DNA from: Saccostrea echinata
Taxonomy: Eukaryota
Direction: 5' to 3'
NCBI RefSeq assembly: GCF_033153115.1
Contig: NW_026889779.1
Location: forward strand, 1,860,001 to 1,924,000
Length of the DNA stretch: 64,000 nt
The position numbers and the translations under genes were made by a program. Positions 50,541 through 62,910 of this stretch are shown here, one piece after another. The stretch's first letter is position 1. Each line of letters starts with the position of its first letter. The notes under the pieces were generated by a model. That model did no database searches and was not told where the DNA came from. It saw only the letters and a list, made by a program, of their open reading frames with translations.

Positions 50541-51475
50541 AAGTCTTAAAACTTGCTTTCGATGCCGATGGAATTCTCGCGGCGCCGCCCTACACTTCAC
50601 AATCATTGAGAATGGAAATGAGATACACTTATATATTTAAACATTAGTTTTATTAGAGGATCGTTACCGATACACATAGACAGGAAAACTGACAGAAAAC
50701 AAGTAGACTTAGAACAAAGAAAGAACTTTAGGATGCTACAGTTACTACCAGATATTACAGTAATATCAACAGCATACTTATTATAGGAAAAAAATACTAA
50801 AAGAAATAATGATAGATAAACGATATCTCTCAGCTTTTCATAGAATAGTAGCAAACCAAGAAACATCAGGTCTCTATCATACAACTTAAATTGATAAATT
50901 AACAAAGCTGGTTTATCAAATTGAATAAAATTTTAATCAAATATGGCTTACCAACAGCTCTAGAAACACTAAACTACATCAAGAACAAACAAAAACAAAG
51001 CAACACAAGCGATAGCATTTTACAAGCACCAGAGCTTCGTAGGCAGAAGGATAAAACGTACGCTCAACTAGGACCTTAGGTCACCGGCTCAGTTCACAAC
51101 TATCAAACCTGTTTACTCCGCGACAAAATGTAGTGCACTGCAACCTAAAGTGAAAATAGAATAAATCGCACTACTGTGAAGCTTTTACAGTGTAAAACAA
51201 CAAACAGAAAATCTATTTTTGTCAAAGGAATAATCATCTGATATGAGGAAAGATACAGAGGGAGCAACATTGACTGCAATATATTGTAAAATATGTTATA
51301 CAGCAATGGATTACGTAGGGTGACCTGTGGTCTCCCTAATGATATTATTATTCCATGTAAGGCAACAGTATCTATTTAAGACAGTACCTAACCTCTGATC
51401 TCCTTATTAATATATCAGGGTAGGCGACCTCCTGTCTCCACATTCGCACATCCAACAGGCAGGGGGAGGAGGTAC

Positions 51476-52036
51476 TGTAGTGTTTTTTTATTTCATAATA
51501 TACGATTTTCTATTTGAGTAGACTTAAGTAGTTAACTTTTATACTTAGAGTAAATTTTTGTTTATCGCTAGCTATAGGTAGCCTAATGGCGCCCTAATAA
51601 CATTGGGTGTCTTAGAGGCCTAATCATGTTAGGTGGTAAGAGGCCCTATAACTTGGTGCCCGACACCTAATGGTGGCCTAATCATGTTAGGTAGTAGGAG
51701 GCCCTATTATTTGGGTGCCTAATAGAAGCCTAATGGATGCCTAATAGAAGCCTAACTATATTGGGCTGTCGACAGGTATATATACAGGGTGAGAGAATAT
51801 GTGCGGCAGGCACTTCTCCCCTATTTCTTGATTTACTATGATGTTATGTTGATGTAAATTTCCATAATACAATTCGTTCTACAAAAGCAAAGTGTTGTTC
51901 TTATTGATCTATAAAGATCTCAAAATCCTACGCATGTGTTGCGAATAGCACAGGATCCACATAATTTTGTGACTTGTCTGGGGTTTAAGCAGATTTGGAT
52001 ATAATCACAAGCTACATTACCCTCAGTTGCGTTACA
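51476..52036 (+). repeat. 5' LTR (561 bp)
   Basis: tgtagtg...gcgttaca. TATA-like sequence at 51777. Confidence 0.97.
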
Positions 52037-52038
52037 AT

Positions 52039-52056
52039 TGGTGGCAGCGGTGGGAT
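52039..52056 (+). promoter_or_regulatory. Primer-binding site, tRNA-Leu
   Basis: TGGTGGCAGCGGTGGGAT is the reverse complement of ATCCCACCGCTGCCACCA, the 3' end of eukaryotic tRNA-Leu(AAG/UAG). Confidence 0.88.
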
Positions 52057-52106
52057 CCAGTGAAATTATTCAAGTGCTATATTGGATTAAGCCTACACTG
52101 AGCAGG

Positions 52107-53552
52107 ATGGAAACACCAATGATAAGGAGAAGGATAACGCCGAGAAAGGTAGAACAAGATTTTGAAAGTCATTTGAATGACTCTGGAATTGGGAACTCAC
52201 CAGGGTTTGAGGGAGATGCACTACCCACAGGTCGAGTTGGGCCAGGCACACCTGATTTTCAGGACTGCAGGCCCACAAGTAGCTCGCAGGGTTGCTCTCC
52301 TGTAAAATCCGAGTTTCCTATGAGTATCTATAGAGAGAGGAGTGAGTCTAGACCGAGCTTAAAGAGAATCCTTTTCATTTGGTTTCTTTTTGCTTTGGTT
52401 GTGTGTTGTTTAATGTACATAGCCTGGACCTATTTTCCATTTAAAGAGATTGTTCAGCGATCTTATGAACACGCAACAATCTCTCTCGCATCCGCCGTGA
52501 GTGTAATACTGTTACTGATCATAACAGTATCATGGAAAAATGGGGGAACAAGCTCTGAAGCTGATGACCAGGTAAAAGAAATTTATCAGGGATCGAACTT
52601 TGGCTATTTTGGTGGCGAGGCATCTAACAGCCCAAAAGGTACCTATCAGGAACCTAATGTGGTTGGGCATCTGAGGCCTAATGCCCCTAATGTGGGTCAA
52701 GGTTCTTCTCTTGGTATAGGGCATAACTTAGAACTGCCGCTTGCTGATGCAACTCCTGTTAGCGGTCCAGTTAAAAGGACCCAGGATGAGATGGGCTCAC
52801 GGGTAAATGAATATCCAGTTAGGAGGACTTTTTCAGGAACAAACAATGATGTTTGGAATGAATTTTATCAATATTTTGAAAATATTGCTGAGCTGAACTC
52901 ATGGGGACCAGAGAAGTCTCGTCGAGTGCTGTTGAGTACACTGCGGGGCCAAGCAGAGAGTTACGCCTATGGGATACCCCTTGCAACTCAAAGGGACTAT
53001 GAACAGCTTAAACAAAAGATGGAGCAGCGATTTGGCCATTCGGCTATGAAGGAACGCTATATAGCTGATGCTAAACTAAGAAAGCGACAATCTGGAGAGT
53101 CCTTGAGGGATTTTGGACAAGCGATTGAAGACCTTTACAGGAGGGCTTATCCAGAAAACCCTGACATAGTTGAAGAAAATGCCATTAAGTCATTTTTGGA
53201 CAAATGTGGACAGTCTGAAGATTTTCGTCTGGCAGTGAAGAGGACCAGGCCTAAGACACTGCAGGAAGCTGTGCTAAATGCTATGCAAGAGGAATGCTTG
53301 CGAGTAGGAGAAAGAGAATTGTCGAAGGACCACAAAGTCGTCCACCGACAGATATATGAAATTGGAACTGAGACGGGGGAGAGTAATTTTAAGGTAGCTA
53401 CCGGTACCGCCAAGCCCCCAAGCGCGGGTGAAGGATTCCCCGGTACCCAAGAAAATCTGAGAAACCCCGAAACTTGTAGATATGGAAGGCTAGGAGGAAG
53501 GGGACGCCCTTATTATCCTAAGCACCGAAATGTTCAAACAGGGATACAATAG
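52107..53552 (+). CDS. gag: Gag with two N-terminal transmembrane helices and a capsid domain
   Basis: First ATG at 52107. CA-like FSG...W..F...FE..A..N.W...L...L.G.A and MHR-like RQSGESLRDF. The natural end is probably 53616 (QDLN*), after a frameshift. Confidence 0.88.
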   Translation: METPMIRRRITPRKVEQDFESHLNDSGIGNSPGFEGDALPTGRVGPGTPDFQDCRPTSSSQGCSPVKSEFPMSIYRERSESRPSLKRILFIWFLFALVVCCLMYIAWTYFPFKEIVQRSYEHATISLASAVSVILLLIITVSWKNGGTSSEADDQVKEIYQGSNFGYFGGEASNSPKGTYQEPNVVGHLRPNAPNVGQGSSLGIGHNLELPLADATPVSGPVKRTQDEMGSRVNEYPVRRTFSGTNNDVWNEFYQYFENIAELNSWGPEKSRRVLLSTLRGQAESYAYGIPLATQRDYEQLKQKMEQRFGHSAMKERYIADAKLRKRQSGESLRDFGQAIEDLYRRAYPENPDIVEENAIKSFLDKCGQSEDFRLAVKRTRPKTLQEAVLNAMQEECLRVGERELSKDHKVVHRQIYEIGTETGESNFKVATGTAKPPSAGEGFPGTQENLRNPETCRYGRLGGRGRPYYPKHRNVQTGIQ

Positions 53553-53606
53553 GTACACAATTCCTCGCGAACCTGCGAATTGTGTTGATAAAGAGAAAAG
53601 GCAAGA

Positions 53607-56600
53607 TTTAAACTAAATGCGACTGGTGCGGAAGGCCGGGTATCAGTCGGATTTAAGAGGCCTCAAGGAAATGAAGATTACAAGAAGGAGAGAAAGAAAA
53701 TATATTGGAAAAAGAGAAGAAAAAGTAAGGTAAATAGCAACCAGGATCATGACATCAAAGATGACGTCATTGAGAAGAACGGAAGTCGGGAGAAGACAGA
53801 AATGAAAACACAGCATACCGTAGTTGAAGGTATGCGCAATATGAGGGTTAAAGGAATGCTTGAAGGGACATCTATAGAGTGGAAAATAGATACTGGAGCA
53901 AAGCGGACGTTTGTGTCTAAAAAAAACTTTTGACAGCATCTTAGAGAAACCCACTCTAAGTCCTGTTAGTGCCACGTACGTTGTAGCGGATGGACGAACT
54001 TTGGATTGTGCTGGAGAGGCTACCATGGTACTAATCTTTGGTGACGATGCTTTTGAGCATCCAGTTATTGTAGGAGGTGTGAAGCATAACCTCCTTGGTG
54101 AAGATTTTATTGAAAAGTTTCGTTGTGGATGGGATCACGATGAAAAGAGTTTTATTATAAAAGGGGTCAAAGTACATTTGAGGGGCTCTGATGGAGTAGG
54201 GCCTGGAAGAGTGATAGCACTAGAGTCGACAGTTGTCCCAGCTGGTGGTGAAGCCCTGGTTCCTTCTGGACTCACTGGGCGTAATAAAACGAATTCAGGG
54301 GAATACCTCGGAGTTCTTACGCCTGAGAGACCTTTCATGGAACGGTATGGGTTAGCTATAGCAAGGACATTGGTTGATTCTAAAAATGCGGTAATCTACG
54401 CTAGGATATTTAACCCAAAAGCAGAGGATGTGAAGATCTACCGACATACGCACATAGCGTTATTTACCCCAATTTATAAAGTTGGACCAGTGTTTAAATT
54501 ACAAACAAGTAATAGCAATATAGAGCAAGTTGAAGTGAAGGATAGTTCGACTATTGACATCCCGGAATATCTACAGAATGTGTACAAAAAGGGATGCGAG
54601 CACCTTGATGAAACGCAAGCAAAAGTATTCAAAGAATTCATCATAAGTAAGCAAAATTGTTTTGCAAGACCAGGAGAAGTAGGAAGAACAAATCTTGGGT
54701 ACCATGAGATAAAACTTCAGGATGAAAAACCTATTCGGGAACCTCCAAGAAGAATTCCATTGCACAAGAGACAAGCTTTAGAGGAGGAAATTAAGAAATT
54801 AGAAAAACAGAACCTTATAGAAAAAAGTACAAGTCCCTGGTCATCTCAAATCGTTATGGTGCAGAAAAAGGACAAATCATGGAGGATGTGTGTTGACTAT
54901 AGGAAGTTGAATGAACAAACCATAAAGGATGCATATCCTTTGACAAGAATTAATGATAATTTAGATTCTCTCAATGGTGCAGAATGGTTTTCCTCCCTAG
55001 TTTCAGATATGGCGTACCACCAGGTACCTTTAGCAGAAGGTGACAAGGAAAAAAACTGCTTTTGCCACGCCTAGGGATGGACTGTACCAGTATATCACCA
55101 TGCCTTTCGGCCTGTGCAATGCAGCAGGTACATTTCAAAGAATTATAGAAAAAGCTCTTACCAATTTGCAGTGGTATGCTGCAGTACTGTATCTGGATGA
55201 TATTGTAGTATTTGGGAAGACGTTTGAAGAGCATTTTAAGAATTTAAACGAGGTTATGGACCGATTAGCAAAGGCTGGCCTGAAGCTCAAGCCGAAGAAA
55301 TGCCATTTCCTGAAGAAGAAAATAAGTTTCTTGGGACATGTGGTTTCAAAAGAAGGTATACAGACAGATCCAGAGAAGACAAAGGCAATAGATCAAATTC
55401 GAATACCGTCTTCTGTTAAAGAAGTGCGAAGTTTCCTAGGATTAGCCTGCTATTATCGAAAGTTTGTAAAAGATTACTCAAAGATTGCAAAGCCTCTATA
55501 CGACCTCACTAAGCAAGATAAGAAATATCTCTGGACAGATGATTGCCAAAGAGCGTTTGAAGAACTTAAGTTAAGGTTGACATCAGCACCTATCTTGGCA
55601 TATCCAAATATGGAAGGAGACGAGTTTATACTTGATACTGATGCTAGTGCCTTTGCTATTGGAGCAGTTTTGTCTCAAAAGCAAGATGGTAAGGAGAGGG
55701 TTATAGCCTATGGAAGCAGGACACTTAATAAGCCAGAAAGGAATTATTGTGTTACAAGAAGAGAAATGTTGGCTGTAGTATACTTTACAAGGTATTTCAA
55801 GCATTATCTACTAGGGAAAAGGTTTACACTTAGGACTGATCATGGTTCTCTCACATGGCTGAAAAATTTCAAAGAACCTGATGGCCAAATACACAGGTGG
55901 ATTCAGCAACTTAGTCAGTTTCACATGAAGATAGTGCATAGGCCAGGAAGCAGACATGGAAATGCAGATGCAATGTCAAGGTTAACAGAATTACCAAAAG
56001 AAGTATGTAAGCAATGCAAAATGCCGAGTAACTTCATGTATCAAGGACCTACAGAAGTAGACGTTCCATATATGAAAGAGGGACAGCAAGATGATAGAGT
56101 GCAAGCTGTGAGTAATGAAGAAGTTTTAGAGGAGGATTCAGAATCTGAAAGTCCTAACTTATTCCCAAATAATGGAAGTAATGGTGGACTAGATGATTCA
56201 AATGTGGCTGATGGAATGCCTATTTTGAGGAGAGGTAGAAAGGTAAACAGACCCGCACCTGCGAAACAAAGACTCAGACCCAAGCTCGATCTTAACTACA
56301 CTACACTGAGAAAGGAGCAAGAGGATGATACAGTAATTGGAAAAATACTTAAGCTGAAAGAGAGCAATGCTGAGAAACCAGAAAAGGATAAAATTATAGC
56401 AGAGAGTCCAGAATTTAAATTTTGGTTGTCAAGGTGGGAGATATTGGAGGTGAGAGATGGGGTTCTTTGTATCCTATGGGAAGATAGTTCAAAAAGATGG
56501 CGGATCTGTGCCCCAAAATCTATTTTGCATGTTGTAATGTGGCACCTACACGACTCCAAGCTATCAGGACATCAAGGAATTAAGAAAACTGTGGAAAAAG

Positions 56601-57919
56601 CAAAGATTTGTCCATTTTACTGGTGGGGTATTGTACGAGATATAAGAGAGTATGTGCAGAAATGCGAGATATGTGAGGAACGGAAAGACCCCCCAAACAA
56701 AAAGCGTCATTTTCTACAGAAGTATGTTGTAGGCGGCCCATTTGAGAGAATTGCCACGGACCTCGCAGGACCATTCCCAACTACTGAGAGGGGGAATCGC
56801 TACATATTAGTAATAGGAGATTATTTTACCAAATTGACGGAAGCGTATCCATTAGAAAATATAACAGCTGAGACTGTAGCTGATGTTTTGTTTCGTGCAT
56901 GGATAAAAAGATATGGTTGTCCAGCTGAGGTGCACTCCGACCAAGGGAGACAGTATGAAAGTGCTTTATTTCTTGAGTTGTGTCGAATGTTACAGGTTAA
57001 TAAGACGAGGACAACTCCTCTACATCCAAGGTCGGATGGCATGATAGAGAGGATGAATAGGACCATACAAGACATGCTGTCAAAGTACATAAAGAGTCAT
57101 CAAAAAGACTGGGATCTACATTTGGATTATATCACCTTGGCATATAATTCAACGCCTCATGAGAGTACTAGTGTATCGCCTCATAAAATGGTATTTGGAA
57201 GAGAAATTAAACTACCACTTGACTTTATGGCGAATAATGTAGTTGAAGAGGAAACGTTTGAGACAGATTTTGTGCGGAATTTGAGAGATAACTTGTGCCA
57301 GGCTCACGAATTTGCACGCAAGTCCTTGCAGAAATCGTCAGAAAGGCAGAAACAACAGTATGATTTGAAAGTTAGGGAAAAGAGCTATGAGATAGGTCAA
57401 TTAGTGTGGAGGAACCAGAAAATAGTTACACCAGGAAAAAAACAGAAAATATGCAGGAATTGGAATGGCCCCTGGGTAATAACAAAGAAGATTAGTGAAG
57501 TACTCTACAAAATCCAACATAAGGAGGACTTACCTGGAGTTGTCGTCCACGGGGATAATTTAAAAGAATACAAAGGGGAAAAGAAAATTAATTGGTTTAA
57601 TGGAGGATTTCAGGAAGAAAGTTTGCCTACAGAACTACCAAATTTAGAGGCTTTTAAAGATGCTGACCATTTAGAAAGAAATTGTGAAATAAAATCCAGA
57701 AATAAAGACAAATTCGCAGACGCCGAACCGGGACCTAACGCAGACACCGAATTAGAATCGGAGTCGGACGCCGAAATGAGATCGGGTACAGAGTCTGCAA
57801 TTATTGTAAACAGAAATGCCACGAGGTTTGGAAGAAGTGTAAGAAAGCCCGAAAAATTTAAAGATTATGTTAGTAATGTACAGCTAAAGAATGGATGTTC
57901 GGAAATCGGTATTATGTAA
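53607..57919 (+). CDS. pol: Pol (PR, dUTPase-like insert, RT, RNase H, IN), split by two +1 frameshifts
   Basis: PR IDTGA (~53890). RT WRMCVDYRKLN, MPFGLCNA, YLDD. RH LDTDAS, EMLAVV, TDH. IN H-H-C-C, D(LAGP), D(QGR), ERMNRT. Frameshifts in A-runs at ~53920 and ~55050. Confidence 0.95.
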
Positions 57920-58721
57920 ATATTGTGGAAAGTTATTTGCTAGCGTGAAAAATCTAAAACGACATGAAAATCAAAGACACAAGAACATTGTCAAAGTGAG
58001 GAAGTGCCCCTTAGATAACTGTGGAATTTATACCTTTAGATTAGAATACTTAGTGTCCCACCTGAAGAGATTTCACGGAAAACAGCACAATGATGCTAAG
58101 GAAATCGCAAAATTATCGATAATAGAACTTAAAGAGAGAGAGGAAATTAAGGAAATAAATCTGAAGATTCGTGCCCGTCAAAAACAAAGGATGATGGATA
58201 GAGAGAATAACAACACATCATTGGTATTAGGGGACGAAGAAGACATTTTGGATATTGACGTGCCAAAAGAGGAACAAGAGACAATAGATTTTGATATACT
58301 GGAGGAAGACTGGGTGAATACTCTCTTAGAGGGAATTTCTGGAGAAAAAGAGGAATTAGATGATCATGTGTCAGAAATTTCGAATGAAAGTAAAGAAATC
58401 GTGCAACCATTAGAAGAGGACGTGCCAAAAGACAACGAAGAAATAGAGTGTGATCCTGATGAGAATGTTAAACAAGGAGAGCCTTCTTCAGCAACAGATG
58501 TATCGGAAGTCGTAGAGACCATCACTATCAATCTAGTAACTACGAGAAGAATAACACCCAATGGTATTTCCATCAGGCGGAATCATCAAATATCTACTTC
58601 TAGATTTATCCGACCGGAACAGATTGACTGGATGAATTTCTTTTCCTATCTGCAAAATGAAATACTTGAGTACGCTAAGGAAGAACACGAGAGGGATTGT
58701 GACGCGGAAGACTTAGACTAA
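57891..58721 (+). CDS. ORF3: two C2H2 zinc fingers plus an acidic domain (276 aa)
   Basis: CKYC-x12-HENQRH and CPLDNC-x12-HLKRFH, then a D/E-rich C-terminal half. Intact, overlaps the pol stop by 29 nt, and lies inside the element. Confidence 0.85.
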   Translation: MDVRKSVLCKYCGKLFASVKNLKRHENQRHKNIVKVRKCPLDNCGIYTFRLEYLVSHLKRFHGKQHNDAKEIAKLSIIELKEREEIKEINLKIRARQKQRMMDRENNNTSLVLGDEEDILDIDVPKEEQETIDFDILEEDWVNTLLEGISGEKEELDDHVSEISNESKEIVQPLEEDVPKDNEEIECDPDENVKQGEPSSATDVSEVVETITINLVTTRRITPNGISIRRNHQISTSRFIRPEQIDWMNFFSYLQNEILEYAKEEHERDCDAEDLD

Positions 58722-58985
58722 AAAAAAACTCATTGTGTTCAAGCTAACTCAGGGATCAAGTGACTTTGAAATATATTTTGACATTTGCAAAATTATTAGG
58801 GTGCTAACGACATGACTGTATTTTACCATATTATCCATCGTTTTAATATGTTTTTTTTTTTTAAATTGTTCTAGTCAGTTATTTGTACATTGTTTTTTTT
58901 TATATTGATCAAGTAAGTTTGTATACGTTTTTTTTTTTAATTGTCTTTGTTTTTTTTTAATGGACAGTGGAAGTCCAATCTTCTT

Positions 58986-58994
58986 AAGGAGGGA
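58986..58994 (+). promoter_or_regulatory. Polypurine tract
   Basis: aaggaggga, 4 nt before the 3' LTR. Confidence 0.7.
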
Positions 58995-58998
58995 CCAT

Positions 58999-59557
58999 TG
59001 TAGTGTTTTTTTATTTCATAATATACGATTTTCTATTTGAGTACACTTAAGTAGTTAACTTTTATACTTAGAGTAAATTTTTGTTTATCGCTAGCTATAG
59101 GTAGCCTAATGGCGCCCTAATAACATTGGGTGTCTTAGAGGCCTAATCATGTTAGGTGGTAAGAGGCCCTATAACTTGGTGCCCGACACCTAATGGTGGC
59201 CTAATCATGTTAGGTAGTAGGAGGCCCTATTATTTGGGTGCCTAATAGAAGCCTAATGGATGCCTAATAGAAGCCTAACTATATTGGGCTGTCGACAGGT
59301 ATATATACAGGGTGAGAGAATGTGCGGCAGGCACTTCTCCCCTATTTCTTGATTTACTATGATGTTATGTTGATGTAAATTTCCATAATACAATTCGTTC
59401 TACAAAAGCAAAGTGTTGTTCTTATTGATCTATAAAGATCTCAAAATCCTACGCATGTGTTGCGAATAGCACAGGATCCACATAATTTTGTGACTTGTCT
59501 GGGGTTTAAGCAGATTTGGATATAATCACAAGCTACATTACCCTCAGTTGCGTTACA
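58999..59557 (+). repeat. 3' LTR (559 bp)
   Basis: Differs from the 5' LTR by 1 substitution and one 2-nt indel, by eye. Confidence 0.97.
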
Positions 59558-60254
59558 GTACATTATAGGTCTTGCCCCCCACCCCGCTCGGACTCTTCAC
59601 TGATCCTTAAAGATAATGGAATAATTATTTGGTAATAAATCATATTAGGTGTCCTCTGGTCTCCCTTTTGAGGTCATACCTCAATAGGCGACCTTATCAG
59701 TTTAACACTCTAGTAAACCTCTGGTTAATATTAATCTTACAGAGTAGATGTATGCCCAGTCTTGCAAGGATGGAGGCTGAAGTTCTCCTCCCCTTTCCCT
59801 GGAATTTACTCTTATCAAATTCATAAACGAATCAAAACTACTAGTATATTTTCCAAAATAATAAACTTAAAAAACATGGATTCATTGTCAATTGCTTGTG
59901 GGATACATATACTGTATATGAAGGAAAAGTTGTCTAATGTCATCCCCATCCAATTACATAAATTTAGAAAATTAATTTGGAGAAATTGTGAAATTGTTGG
60001 CTTGCAAAAAAAACAGGGTCTCAATTTTTGTTTGGAGTGAATTTGAAAAATAATTCTTCACATGGAACATTTTTTAAATTGTCTTCTTATAACTTCAAAA
60101 GTTTTCCTAATAATGAACAATATAAGATTACCTCTGGTCTACTGTTTCATATACCACTTCGTCTGACCTCTGATATCCTTATTGATGTACAATATAAGAC
60201 AAACTCATGTTTCCATATTCTTTATGTGGGGAGCAGAGGAAACATAAAGTTTAT

Positions 60255-62326
60255 ATGAATAGGGAGACCATAGGTCCCCTTATATTGTACATCATTGGGA
60301 GGATCAAAGATCACATTGTATTGTACATCAAAAGAAAGACAAGAGGTCCCCTTATATCCTACATCTATAGGGAGACCAGAGGTCCCCTTACATCCTACAT
60401 CTATAGGGAGACCAGAGGACACCTTATATTGTACATAATTAGGGGGACCAGAGGTCACCTTATATCCAATATTAATAGGGAGACCAGAGGTCCCCTCATA
60501 TCCTACATCTTTAGGGAGACCAGAGGACACCTTGTATTGTACATCAATAGGGAACCCAGGGATCATTTGTACATCAACAGGGAGACCAAAGGTCCCCTTA
60601 TATCCTACATCAGTAGGGAGACCAGAGGACACTTTATATATTACATCAATAGGGAGACCAGAGGTCCCCTATATCGTACACCAACAGGGAGACCAGAGGT
60701 CCCCTTATATCCTACATCCATAGGGAGACCAGAGGACACCTTATATTGTACATCAAAAGGGAGACCAGAGATTTCTTATATTGTACACCAATAGGGAGAC
60801 CAAAGATCCCCTTATACCCTACATCAGTAGGGAGACCAAAGGATACCTTATATTTAACATCAATAGGGAGACCAGAGGTCACCTTATATTGTACATTAGT
60901 AGAGAGACCAGAAGTCACATTATATTGTACATGAATACGGAAACCTGGGGTCCCCTTATTTTATTAATCATTGGGGTGACCATATTTCATATAAAAGTGT
61001 TTTTAAATACGGAGACCAGATCGCGTCTTATGTTGTACATTATTCAAGAGACCAGAGATCACATAAAGTTGTGTATGAATATGAAGACCAGAGGACACCC
61101 TATATTGTTCATCATATGCAGACCACTGGTCACATAAGGCTGTGTATAATATGAATACGGAGACCAGAGGTCCCCTAATATTGTACATCAATAGGGAGAC
61201 TAGAGGTAACATATATTGTATTGTACATAAATACGGAGACCAGAGGACACCTTATATTGTAAAGAATTAGGGAGACCAGAGGTAACTTATTTTGTACATC
61301 GATAGGGAGACCAGAGGACACCTTATATTGTACATAATAAGGGGGACCAGAGGTCACCTTATATTGTACATCAATAGGGAGACAAGAGGTCACTTACTTT
61401 GTACATCAATAGGGAGACTAGAGGTAACATATATTGTATTGTACATAAATACGGAGACCAGAGGACACCTTATATTGTAAAGAATTAGGGAGACCAGAAG
61501 TAACTTATTTTGTACATCGATAGGGAGACCAGAGGACACCTTATATTGTACATAATAAGGGGGACCAGAGGTCATCTTATATTGTACATCAATAGGGAGA
61601 CCAGAGGACACTGTATATTGTACATAATTAGGGAGACTAGAGGTAACTTATTTTGTACATCAATAGGGAGAGCAAGGTCACCTTATATTGTAGATCAATA
61701 GGAACACCAAAGGTCCCCTTATATCCTACATCATTAGGGAGACCAGAGATCCCCTTATATCCTACATCTCTAGGGAGACCAGAGGACACCTTATATTGTA
61801 CATCATTAGGGAGACCAGAGGTCACCATATATCCTGCATCAGTAGGGAGACCAGAAGACACCTTATATTGTACATCAATAGGGAAACCAGAGATCACTTA
61901 TATTGTACATCAATAGGGAGACCAAAGGTCCCCTTATATCCTACATCAGTAGGGAGACCAGAGGACACTTATATTGTACATCAGTAGGGAAACCAGAAGA
62001 CACCTTATATTTGACATCAATAGGGAGACCAGAGGTCACCTTATATTGTACATTAGTAGGGAGACCACAGGTCCCCTTATATCCTACATCAGTAGGGAGA
62101 CCAGAAGACACCTTATATTGTACATCAATAGGGAAACCAGAGATCACTTATATTGTACAGCAATAGGGAGACCAAAGGTCCCCTTATATCATCATTAGTA
62201 GGGAGACCAGAGGACACCTTATATTGTACATCAATATGGAAACCAGAGGACATCTTCTATTTTACATCAATAGGGAGACCAGAAGTCACCTTATATTGTA
62301 CATTAGTAGGGAGAACAGAAGTCACA
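60255..62326. repeat. ~36-bp minisatellite array
   Basis: Unit agggagaccagaggacaccttatattgtacatcaat, repeated about 55 times with variants. Confidence 0.95.
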
Positions 62327-62910
62327 TCTATACTTATAAATTAATAAATTTTGCAAATAAACTCCGAAACGGGTGCACCAGAGTTCTTACTTACTCCTCT
62401 AACAATACACTAGATACAAGATGATGTCCGTAAACTATATTTATATTTCACTCGCAAAGTAAGTTTCGTACATTAAATTAAAAGTCTACTTTTATTTTCT
62501 ATAAACAGCCATGAAATAGCAAAAACGTGAGTACGGTGGCGTTTCCGGTTGGCGGATCTAAGTTGCTGGCAATTTTTAATGAAACTGACAACAAGCAATC
62601 GTGTATATATTTCATAAAACGTCATCACTGAATTATTCAATCAAAACTTGATTTAAATGATATTAAAGGAAATAAGTTGTGATAACCGATTAAAAAGGGA
62701 AATTGTAAATTATTTTCGTCATTCACCGATCTTAATATTGACGGAAGCTTCTAGAACATCATATAGCATCGAGCCCGATGTTTAAAAAAACGAGGTGCAT
62801 ATAGCTGCATAACATAAAAAAAGGCTTTTGTGTGATTGGTCATTGAAATAATGGTAAATCATTGATAACACTAAAAGTTGTGAATATATTTATATATCGA
62901 AAGACTATTA

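Follow-up and report, generated by a model that had tools for sequence, protein, structure and literature searches.

The Ty3/gypsy elements Juno and Vesta of bdelloids have the order gag-pol-ORF3 between their long terminal repeats (LTRs), with a non-envelope open reading frame (ORF) in the env slot; it encodes DEDDy or GDSL enzymes, and the passages that treat it report no departure from neutrality (PMC5408684). Here we describe a gene of the same placement in an 8.1-kb LTR retrotransposon of Saccostrea echinata (contig NW_026889779.1, positions 1,860,001 to 1,924,000; this whole 64-kb stretch is the window, and its coordinates are used throughout). The gene, ORF3, comes third in this element, a young member of Ty3/gypsy. 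We call the copy at 51476-59557 and its close relatives focal; L-numbers label other loci. In contrast to the ORF3 described for Juno and Vesta, it encodes two C2H2 zinc fingers and an acidic region, is fixed across its clade and is under purifying selection. The results below show that ORF3 is an accessory gene of long standing, passed on vertically within a clade of bivalve Ty3/gypsy elements, and we hold it close to certain that this gene is functional clade-wide.

Animal LTR retrotransposons are usually taken to depend on host transcription factors, and regulators that an element or virus encodes for itself are known in complex retroviruses and plant DNA transposons. Foamy-virus Tas/Bel1, for which activation has been demonstrated, likewise comes from an accessory gene placed after the replication genes and before the 3' LTR, and binding and activation of its own U3 is what we propose for ORF3. 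The two differ in that ORF3 sits in Metaviridae without env and that its activating role is inferred. Sequence homology to Tas/Bel1 was not seen in a Pfam scan of ORF3, which returned zinc-binding families, one weak unrelated match and nothing else. The maize element Grande is also said to have an accessory gene.

Accessory genes are on record in Tat and fungal chromoviruses (PMC2774666). VANC, of the Arabidopsis VANDAL DNA transposons, is an element-encoded factor with family-specific repeated target motifs within the element, and its demethylating action has been demonstrated; a 2019 review, in the part concerned, lists element-encoded anti-silencing from plants only, with VANC as the best case (PMC6719617). 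It is an unrelated protein of a plant DNA transposon, whereas ours is an animal retrotransposon whose ORF3 has C2H2 fingers and whose promoter has palindromic sites. sORF1 of the Drosophila MDG1 group is, like ORF3, an accessory protein of a Ty3/gypsy element, and its function is open. It is nuclear, about 110 amino acids (aa) long, has a predicted helix-turn-helix and is encoded upstream of gag; the passages on it describe neither zinc fingers nor LTR sites (PMC11952523). The searched passages of a mollusc survey (PMC6238403), the Troyka paper (PMC12440569) and an annelid survey (PMC8220671) make no mention of an ORF such as ours. We found no description of ORF3 in open-access PubMed Central or bioRxiv; prior mention in Repbase, GyDB, subscription journals or the supplements of PMC6238403 is possible.

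ORF3 as an accessory gene of a bivalve Ty3/gypsy clade

A preliminary description of this DNA had pointed to an ORF at 57891..58721, and the frame is real: it runs for 276 aa from ATG to TAA on the + strand. Searching the genome with the focal ORF3, with a copy 26% identical to it and with a third copy gave 39, 84 and 68 matches, the weak rows including host finger genes. Integrase-coding DNA lay at most 1.5 kb upstream on the same strand at 25/30, 27/30 and 17/20 ORF3 loci in three partly overlapping sets, which places the homologues between pol and the 3' LTR. Three misses reflect an insertion inside ORF3, with the integrase farther upstream. Conversely, a comparison of coordinates found an ORF3 match downstream of all 31 best integrase matches. 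In midpoint-rooted trees, the ORF3 elements formed one group both for reverse transcriptase (RT)-RNase H (15 of 33 rows, support 99/97) and in a rapid tree of integrase (19 of 39 rows, support 100). ORF3 identity followed integrase identity among 10 elements (Spearman 0.64; 97 of 10000 permutations). Complete members of the clade have a tRNA-Leu site in common and, where it was read, a 4-bp target-site duplication.

The nonsynonymous rate (dN) was below the synonymous rate (dS) in all 22 ORF3 pairs compared, with p<0.05 in 17, the pairs being non-independent; five close pairs were non-significant and five distant pairs were saturated. For the focal ORF3 and a sister copy, dN/dS was 0.15 and 0.29 in the two halves of the gene, and it was 0.18 between L061 and L068. 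Hence the purifying selection on which the preliminary description depended is present.

Protein records hold named homologues from Saccostrea, Crassostrea virginica, Magallana gigas and three Mytilus species. Could ORF3 be a zinc-finger fragment captured from the host that does nothing for the element? The record names (Cp190-like, EVI1-like, PRDM16-like) do read like host genes, and three groups of loci lack a nearby integrase. However, such names were assigned automatically on the strength of the fingers, and the clade-wide position, the co-divergence with integrase and the purifying selection speak against capture, which we find scarcely credible. A recent capture confined to a single copy is ruled out by the clade-wide homologues together with that co-divergence and selection.

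The preliminary description had also drawn on ORF3 being intact while gag and pol are broken. The lesions are there, but the argument is uninformative: three breaks in 6.6 kb would by chance spare a 0.83-kb ORF in two cases out of three, two of the breaks fall in A-runs and may stem from misassembly, and neither of the two close sister copies has an unbroken ORF3. At L118 (G000:C33:25071500-25081400), no gag, pol or LTR was detected within about 7 kb upstream of ORF3; a relic is more probable here than a domesticated gene, because this ORF3 is broken near its end.

ORF3 adjoins integrase and has a DNA-binding module, and degenerate copies cluster on few contigs (C5, C33, C36, C6). Might ORF3 be a tether between the integration complex and particular places in the genome? 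The clustering is partly segmental duplication, however, by eye there was no evident consensus among the target-site duplications of complete elements, and six near-identical ORF3 copies of one young family (L119, L120, L126-L131) are spread on five contigs. We consider tethering very improbable, and the integration-targeting option of the preliminary description found no support, since the target-site duplications vary.

Two sets of copies deserve separate mention. In the same young family the LTRs are 99-100% identical in the two elements read, and the ORF3 of this family has matches in P0014, a large group of unnamed Logan proteins. L034/L035 and L037/L038/L044, on contigs C5 and C36, are degenerate segmental or haplotype duplicates with flanks in common; L034/L035 lack RT-RNase H and retain gag, part of integrase and ORF3.

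Fingers, acidic region and C-terminal domain

ORF3 begins within pol: its start and the final 29 nt of pol overlap in different frames. The parts of the gene are as follows.

57891..58721, + strand: ORF3, 276 aa, ATG at 57891 to TAA at 58721 (ORF translation, selection test)
57915..58076, + strand: two C2H2 fingers, aa 9-30 and 39-62, with an 8-aa linker (sequence, Pfam, AlphaFold2, Foldseek)
58086..58214, + strand: helical mixed-charge segment, aa 66-108, with a basic stretch (AlphaFold2, composition)
58215..58502, + strand: acidic low-confidence region, aa 109-204, candidate activation region (AlphaFold2, composition)
58503..58718, + strand: conserved C-terminal domain, candidate oligomerisation module (family alignments, family model)

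The two fingers that the preliminary description named are borne out by their sequence pattern (C9-x2-C12-x12-H25-x4-H30 and C39-x4-C44-x12-H57-x4-H62), by a Pfam zf-C2H2 match slightly below the cut-off (E 7.2e-5, 23.5 bits against 25.2) and by the AlphaFold2 fold; clade member L119 clears the Pfam zinc-finger cut-off. AlphaFold2 predicted fingers and helices to residue 108 (block pLDDT 79-96) and was confident only to about aa 110 and in a helix at 247-263. The nearest Foldseek neighbours of residues 1-64 were CTCF, Kaiso and the two-finger structure 2drp (probability ~1.0, E 0.01-0.03, none at or below 0.001). Pfam, AlphaFold2 and Foldseek thus agree on the beta-beta-alpha form of C2H2 fingers. 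ORF3 has the fold of these finger pairs in common with them and differs in its 7-8-aa linker, in having two fingers only and in a C-terminal domain of no known family. The focal recognition helices are SVKNLKR (finger 1) and RLEYLVS (finger 2).

The segment described earlier as basic or coiled retains its basic part, KIRARQKQR, which lies inside a predicted long helix at 83-108. The acidic tract is likewise real: aa 109-204 are 36% D+E, with a short amphipathic helix predicted at 140-150. ORF3 is not env, as had been proposed. It has no transmembrane or signal-like segment of the kind found in errantivirus-like env (top 19-residue Kyte-Doolittle mean 0.65), and the Pfam scan returned no env family.

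The fingers and the acidic tract of the preliminary feature list therefore stand, but the list had overlooked both the U3 palindromes described below and a conserved C-terminal domain of about 65 aa, which was brought out by alignments of homologues. Modelled as a monomer from 22 genomic copies, this domain is a long beta-hairpin and a helix (pTM 0.53); mean pLDDT was 82 for the best model and 63-71 for the rest. Pfam gave no family common to more than 1 of 19 rows; the best match among Protein Data Bank sequences had E 0.42. A fold search with the pTM 0.53 model reached at best Z 2.1, with no Foldseek match at E<=0.001. Together these negatives prove neither novelty nor absence. The domain looks incomplete as a monomer and so would suit oligomerisation, for which we regard it as a candidate.

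In a profile search of 1.8 billion proteins, poly-finger proteins dominated, and 14 of the 150 matches listed span to the C-terminal domain as one stretch. The ESM Atlas gave generic C2H2 clusters only, with low recognition scores, and an NCBIfam search gave no match. No host orthologue of ORF3 beyond the fingers was found in the protein searches.

U3 palindromes and the finger code

Upstream of the presumed promoter of the focal LTR lies a dense array of short inverted motifs.

51582..51766, no strand assigned: U3 array of RTTAGG/CCTAAY, partly at 11-bp pitch; candidate sites for ORF3 or for a host homeodomain protein (motif counts)
51619-51633 and 51677-51691, no strand assigned: perfect CCTAA-N5-TTAGG palindromes (dyad scan)
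51777..51784, + strand: TATA-box-like TATATATA directly after the U3 array, function putative (sequence)

RTTAGG occurs 11 times in the 301 nt upstream of the TATA-like box and 0 times in the other 249 nt of the LTR, and at 0.65/kb elsewhere in the window. Palindromes of the same dyad occur in the U3 of other families with half-sites specific to the family: CAGCTC, ATGCTC, TCACTC and TTGCTC, each followed by N5 and its inverse. Perfect 5-N5-5 palindromes were found in 8 of 13 U3 regions, the focal one included, where shuffles gave 1.04 (at most 5 in any of 200 runs); the 13 regions include related pairs. Spacers of 7 and 9 were mostly nested versions of the N5 sites, and even spacers were at background. 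That 8 of the 13 elements have such family-specific palindromes ahead of the TATA box in their LTR is new; by eye, none of the core type was evident in 13 outgroup LTR regions. Family-specific repeated motifs inside the element are thus present here as in the Tas and VANC systems, and ORF3 would be their reader.

In the textbook C2H2 code, R(-1)/N(3)/R(6) reads GAG. In 8 of 11 elements finger 2 has R at -1, N at 3 and R or K at 6, and the U3 repeats of these hold GAG in seven cases and GAG or TAG in one. GAG is the inner triplet of their palindromes; in this orientation, the C-termini of two monomers face the dyad, as a C-terminally joined dimer needs. With strong rules only, the predicted pattern was clearly enriched in the element's own U3 for L109, L113, L119, L121 and L123 (0-1 of 300 shuffles). 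For seven LTRs (L108, L110, L111, L112, L114, L117, L118), predictions were written down before inspection. L110 agreed, with CTCCT-N7-AGGAG in the N5 geometry (3 sites against 0.25 expected, 1 of 500 shuffles), and L114 agreed in its GAG and spacer parts; L111, L117 and L118 had no usable LTR. The contact between arginine and guanine is confirmed, and zinc-finger codes are said to disagree with one another (PMC4330361).

The focal fingers are a separate case. An unusual finger 2 (xxEYLxS) occurs in two elements, the focal one and L036, and these are the same two with dense RTTAGG arrays: the motif counts are 11 and 18 in their lineages and 0-3 in nine others. Because the code fails for the focal fingers, the case for binding in this lineage is one of geometry and co-occurrence.

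The conserved finger gene and the matching family promoter sites suggest that these elements bring their own transcription factor. We propose that ORF3 is a sequence-specific DNA-binding protein that would read the inverted repeats of its own family's U3 enhancer. From the site geometry and the finger code, finger 2 would lie on the inner triplet and finger 1 on the outer one, and two monomers would face each other over the 5-bp spacer, joined through their C-terminal parts. Such an oligomerising role of the C-terminus fits the BTB_2 and coiled-coil-like tails that stand behind the fingers in neighbouring lineages. As its composition and the position of the sites directly before the TATA box suggest, the acidic region would recruit host machinery and switch LTR transcription on, and the outcome would be a family-private positive feedback loop. 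We think it likely that ORF3 binds its own U3 sites in the clade as a whole, and marginally probable that it does so in the focal lineage. The palindromes lend circumstantial support to the activator option of the preliminary description, and activation rather than repression seems fairly probable. Towards the complete chain, a self-targeting and probably dimeric LTR transcription factor, we lean only slightly.

Several results weigh against this proposal. L116, L119, L121 and L123 have no perfect N5 palindrome. Code-derived patterns suited the element's own U3 over those of other families (217 of 40320 permutations with 8 elements; 1207 of 200000 with the focal one added), but this test was post hoc, one pattern is common to several families, and the code is a simple textbook one. 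The pattern was not enriched in the own U3 of L031, L075 and L106 (134, 41 and 246 of 300 shuffles), was borderline in L116 (19/300) and was depleted in the focal and L036 U3, where 299 and 300 of 300 shuffles reached the observed count. Among the advance predictions, the strict pattern had 0 sites in L114, while L108 and L112 belong to the L116 family, are not independent and have one site each (p ~0.05). A YEDISS-type motif (Y-E/S-D-I-S-S/D/E-D), present in 10/10 homologues checked outside the focal lineage, is missing from the latter. Finally, no outstanding splice acceptor precedes the focal ORF3; a signal in the top 5% of upstream windows was seen in 1 of 11 core elements, another one. 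Re-initiation at the 29-nt overlap is an alternative to a spliced ORF3 message. A single weak RNA run gave no contig over ORF3, which speaks neither for nor against expression.

A further objection comes from the focal-lineage site itself, which overlaps TAAT-N3-(A/G)TTA, which we take to be the paired-homeodomain P3 site; the core is a perfect TAAT-N3-ATTA in L036 and imperfect in the focal element. Since the focal site holds a homeodomain-type palindrome core, a host reader is a live rival: host factors (for the focal array, a paired-class homeodomain dimer or a TTAGG-binding protein) would read the U3 arrays, and ORF3 would bind other DNA, such as host genes. LTR enhancers are mostly built of host sites, and the failure of the code for the focal fingers also favours this reading. 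Against it, a single dyad geometry holds across families with differing half-sites, the focal one included. The unusual finger 2 also coincides with the dense RTTAGG arrays, though the LTRs of the focal lineage and L036 are kin by descent (short matches of 70-90%). We judge a host reader unlikely.

Could the palindromes instead be hairpins in the RNA of the 3' LTR? C2H2 fingers can bind RNA, Rev-like accessory proteins exist, and the 3' copy of U3 is transcribed, so that ORF3 might act after transcription on element RNA, in export, splicing balance or packaging. However, the stems are just 5-9 bp and the dyad is fixed, the conserved bases agree with the DNA-recognition code, and the nearest folds are DNA-bound finger pairs, albeit at weak E-values. 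We regard an RNA role as quite improbable.

That ORF3 acts on the same U3 sites to another end is a closer rival. Acidic tracts with spaced hydrophobic residues typify activation domains, and this favours the activator we propose over a repressor (for copy-number self-control), an anti-silencing factor or a decoy. The YEDISS-type motif points the other way: by eye it resembles, with its upstream Tyr, the CK2-phosphorylated LSD motif through which SMRT/NCoR bind the SPOC domain of SHARP (PMC9834408), and such a phospho-acidic motif could recruit or titrate SPOC-domain proteins. VANC provides a precedent for family-specific anti-silencing via short repeated motifs (PMC6719617). Yet the focal lineage is under purifying selection without the motif. 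We consider these options, taken together, fairly unlikely.

Neighbouring Gypsy lineages and the surrounding DNA

We sampled 20 loci outside the clade, of about 13 families, from 150 integrase matches. At 18 of the 20, an ORF with N-terminal finger-like Cys/His patterns follows pol, and the two loci without it are from a single family, in which other copies do have the ORF. Ten of 14 outgroup ORF3s scanned match C2H2-type Pfam models, mostly below cut-offs. Behind the fingers, a KCTD-type BTB_2 domain lies above the cut-off at the C-terminus in L189:4089-4844 (+ strand, E 1.5e-14) and L195:1452-2735 (- strand, E 2e-18), and some neighbours have coiled-coil-like tails. A second type of ORF3 (n=8: L177, L179, L182, L187, L188, L191, L192, L194) has an invariant N-terminal T-K-x-T, often then PRK, a C2HC+C2H2 pair, and acidic DW-x-x-DP, RKxTxP and TQT-like motifs. 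Its T-K-x-T and TQT-like motifs may resemble the histone H3 tail and dynein-light-chain motifs, which would make this type a possible histone-tail mimic and dynein-light-chain hub. Homology between the core type and the neighbour type was not found beyond the fingers; since only these are in common, a common origin of the core and second types is not established. In 8 of 12 outgroup elements, a strong splice-acceptor-like signal stands just before the ORF3 ATG, and a spliced message is therefore likely in these outgroups.

The remaining parts of the focal element are listed here.

51472..51475 and 59558-59561, + strand: target-site duplication GTAC, left and right (read from sequence)
51476..52036, + strand: 5' LTR, 561 nt, TG...CA (LTR-pair comparison)
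52039..52056, + strand: primer-binding site, complementary to the 3' end of tRNA-Leu(AAG) (tRNA gene match)
52107..53552, + strand: gag, two N-terminal hydrophobic segments, frame break near 53530 (ORFs, sister copies)
53592..57919, + strand: pol (protease, RT, RNase H, integrase), in three pieces (ORFs, Pfam matches)
58986..58994, + strand: polypurine tract ahead of the 3' LTR (read from sequence)
58999..59557, + strand: 3' LTR, 559 nt, same U3 array, palindromes at 59142-59156 and 59200-59214 (LTR-pair comparison)

The two LTRs are 1 substitution and one 2-nt indel apart. The same genome has 8 pattern matches to tRNA-Leu(AAG) genes that fit the primer-binding site, and ARAGORN called 1 of 2 loci checked. 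Pfam matches give the domain order protease-RT-RNaseH-integrase, of Ty3/gypsy type; a Ty3_capsid match in clade member L119 (E 0.001) is below the cut-off. Pol is broken in A-runs at 53919-53926 and 55049-55055; as the copy is so young, the A-run breaks may be assembly errors. At the gag-pol overlap stands TTTAAAC (53607-53613), presumably a slippery-site form, and gag of related families ends Leu-Asn there, which suggests a programmed -1 frameshift.

Gag is strongly hydrophobic and transmembrane-like at about aa 83-112 and at 121-144 (52353-52538). One or two such segments also begin Gag in core-clade members L106, L107, L108, L109, L115, L119, L120 and L121. A membrane-anchored Gag in an env-less element could bear on cell-to-cell spread. 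Directly before the polypurine tract, most outgroup elements among L177-L195 have a short conserved hairpin with a GGA/GAGGAC-type loop; at this place the window has a small GGAC...GTCC stem (58962-58976). Elsewhere in the window there are tandem arrays at 10848-14300 (166-bp unit), 5339-6739 (156-bp) and 60199-62360 (36-bp), the last giving rise to the long repetitive ORFs at 60198-61137. A 276-codon open frame at 893-1723 (+ strand), rich in Tyr/Pro/Arg and with internal repeats, is probably a host exon.

The finding explains a group of mis-named multi-copy 'zinc finger' gene models of oysters and mussels, and it draws attention to an uncharacterised domain at the C-terminus of ORF3. Through its conserved C2H2 gene and family-specific promoter palindromes, the clade makes it testable, family against family, whether animal retrotransposons encode their own activators or anti-silencing factors, and it offers a natural set of finger-site pairs. 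More widely, it is possible, at somewhat less than even chances, that an animal Ty3/gypsy super-lineage encodes its own sequence-specific transcription factor, each family with a co-evolved private factor-enhancer pair and neighbours swapping effector or oligomer modules (BTB, coiled coil, TQT-type motifs, T-K-x-T). If this is true, animal transposons would offer a natural collection of orthogonal switches, self-activating or anti-silencing.

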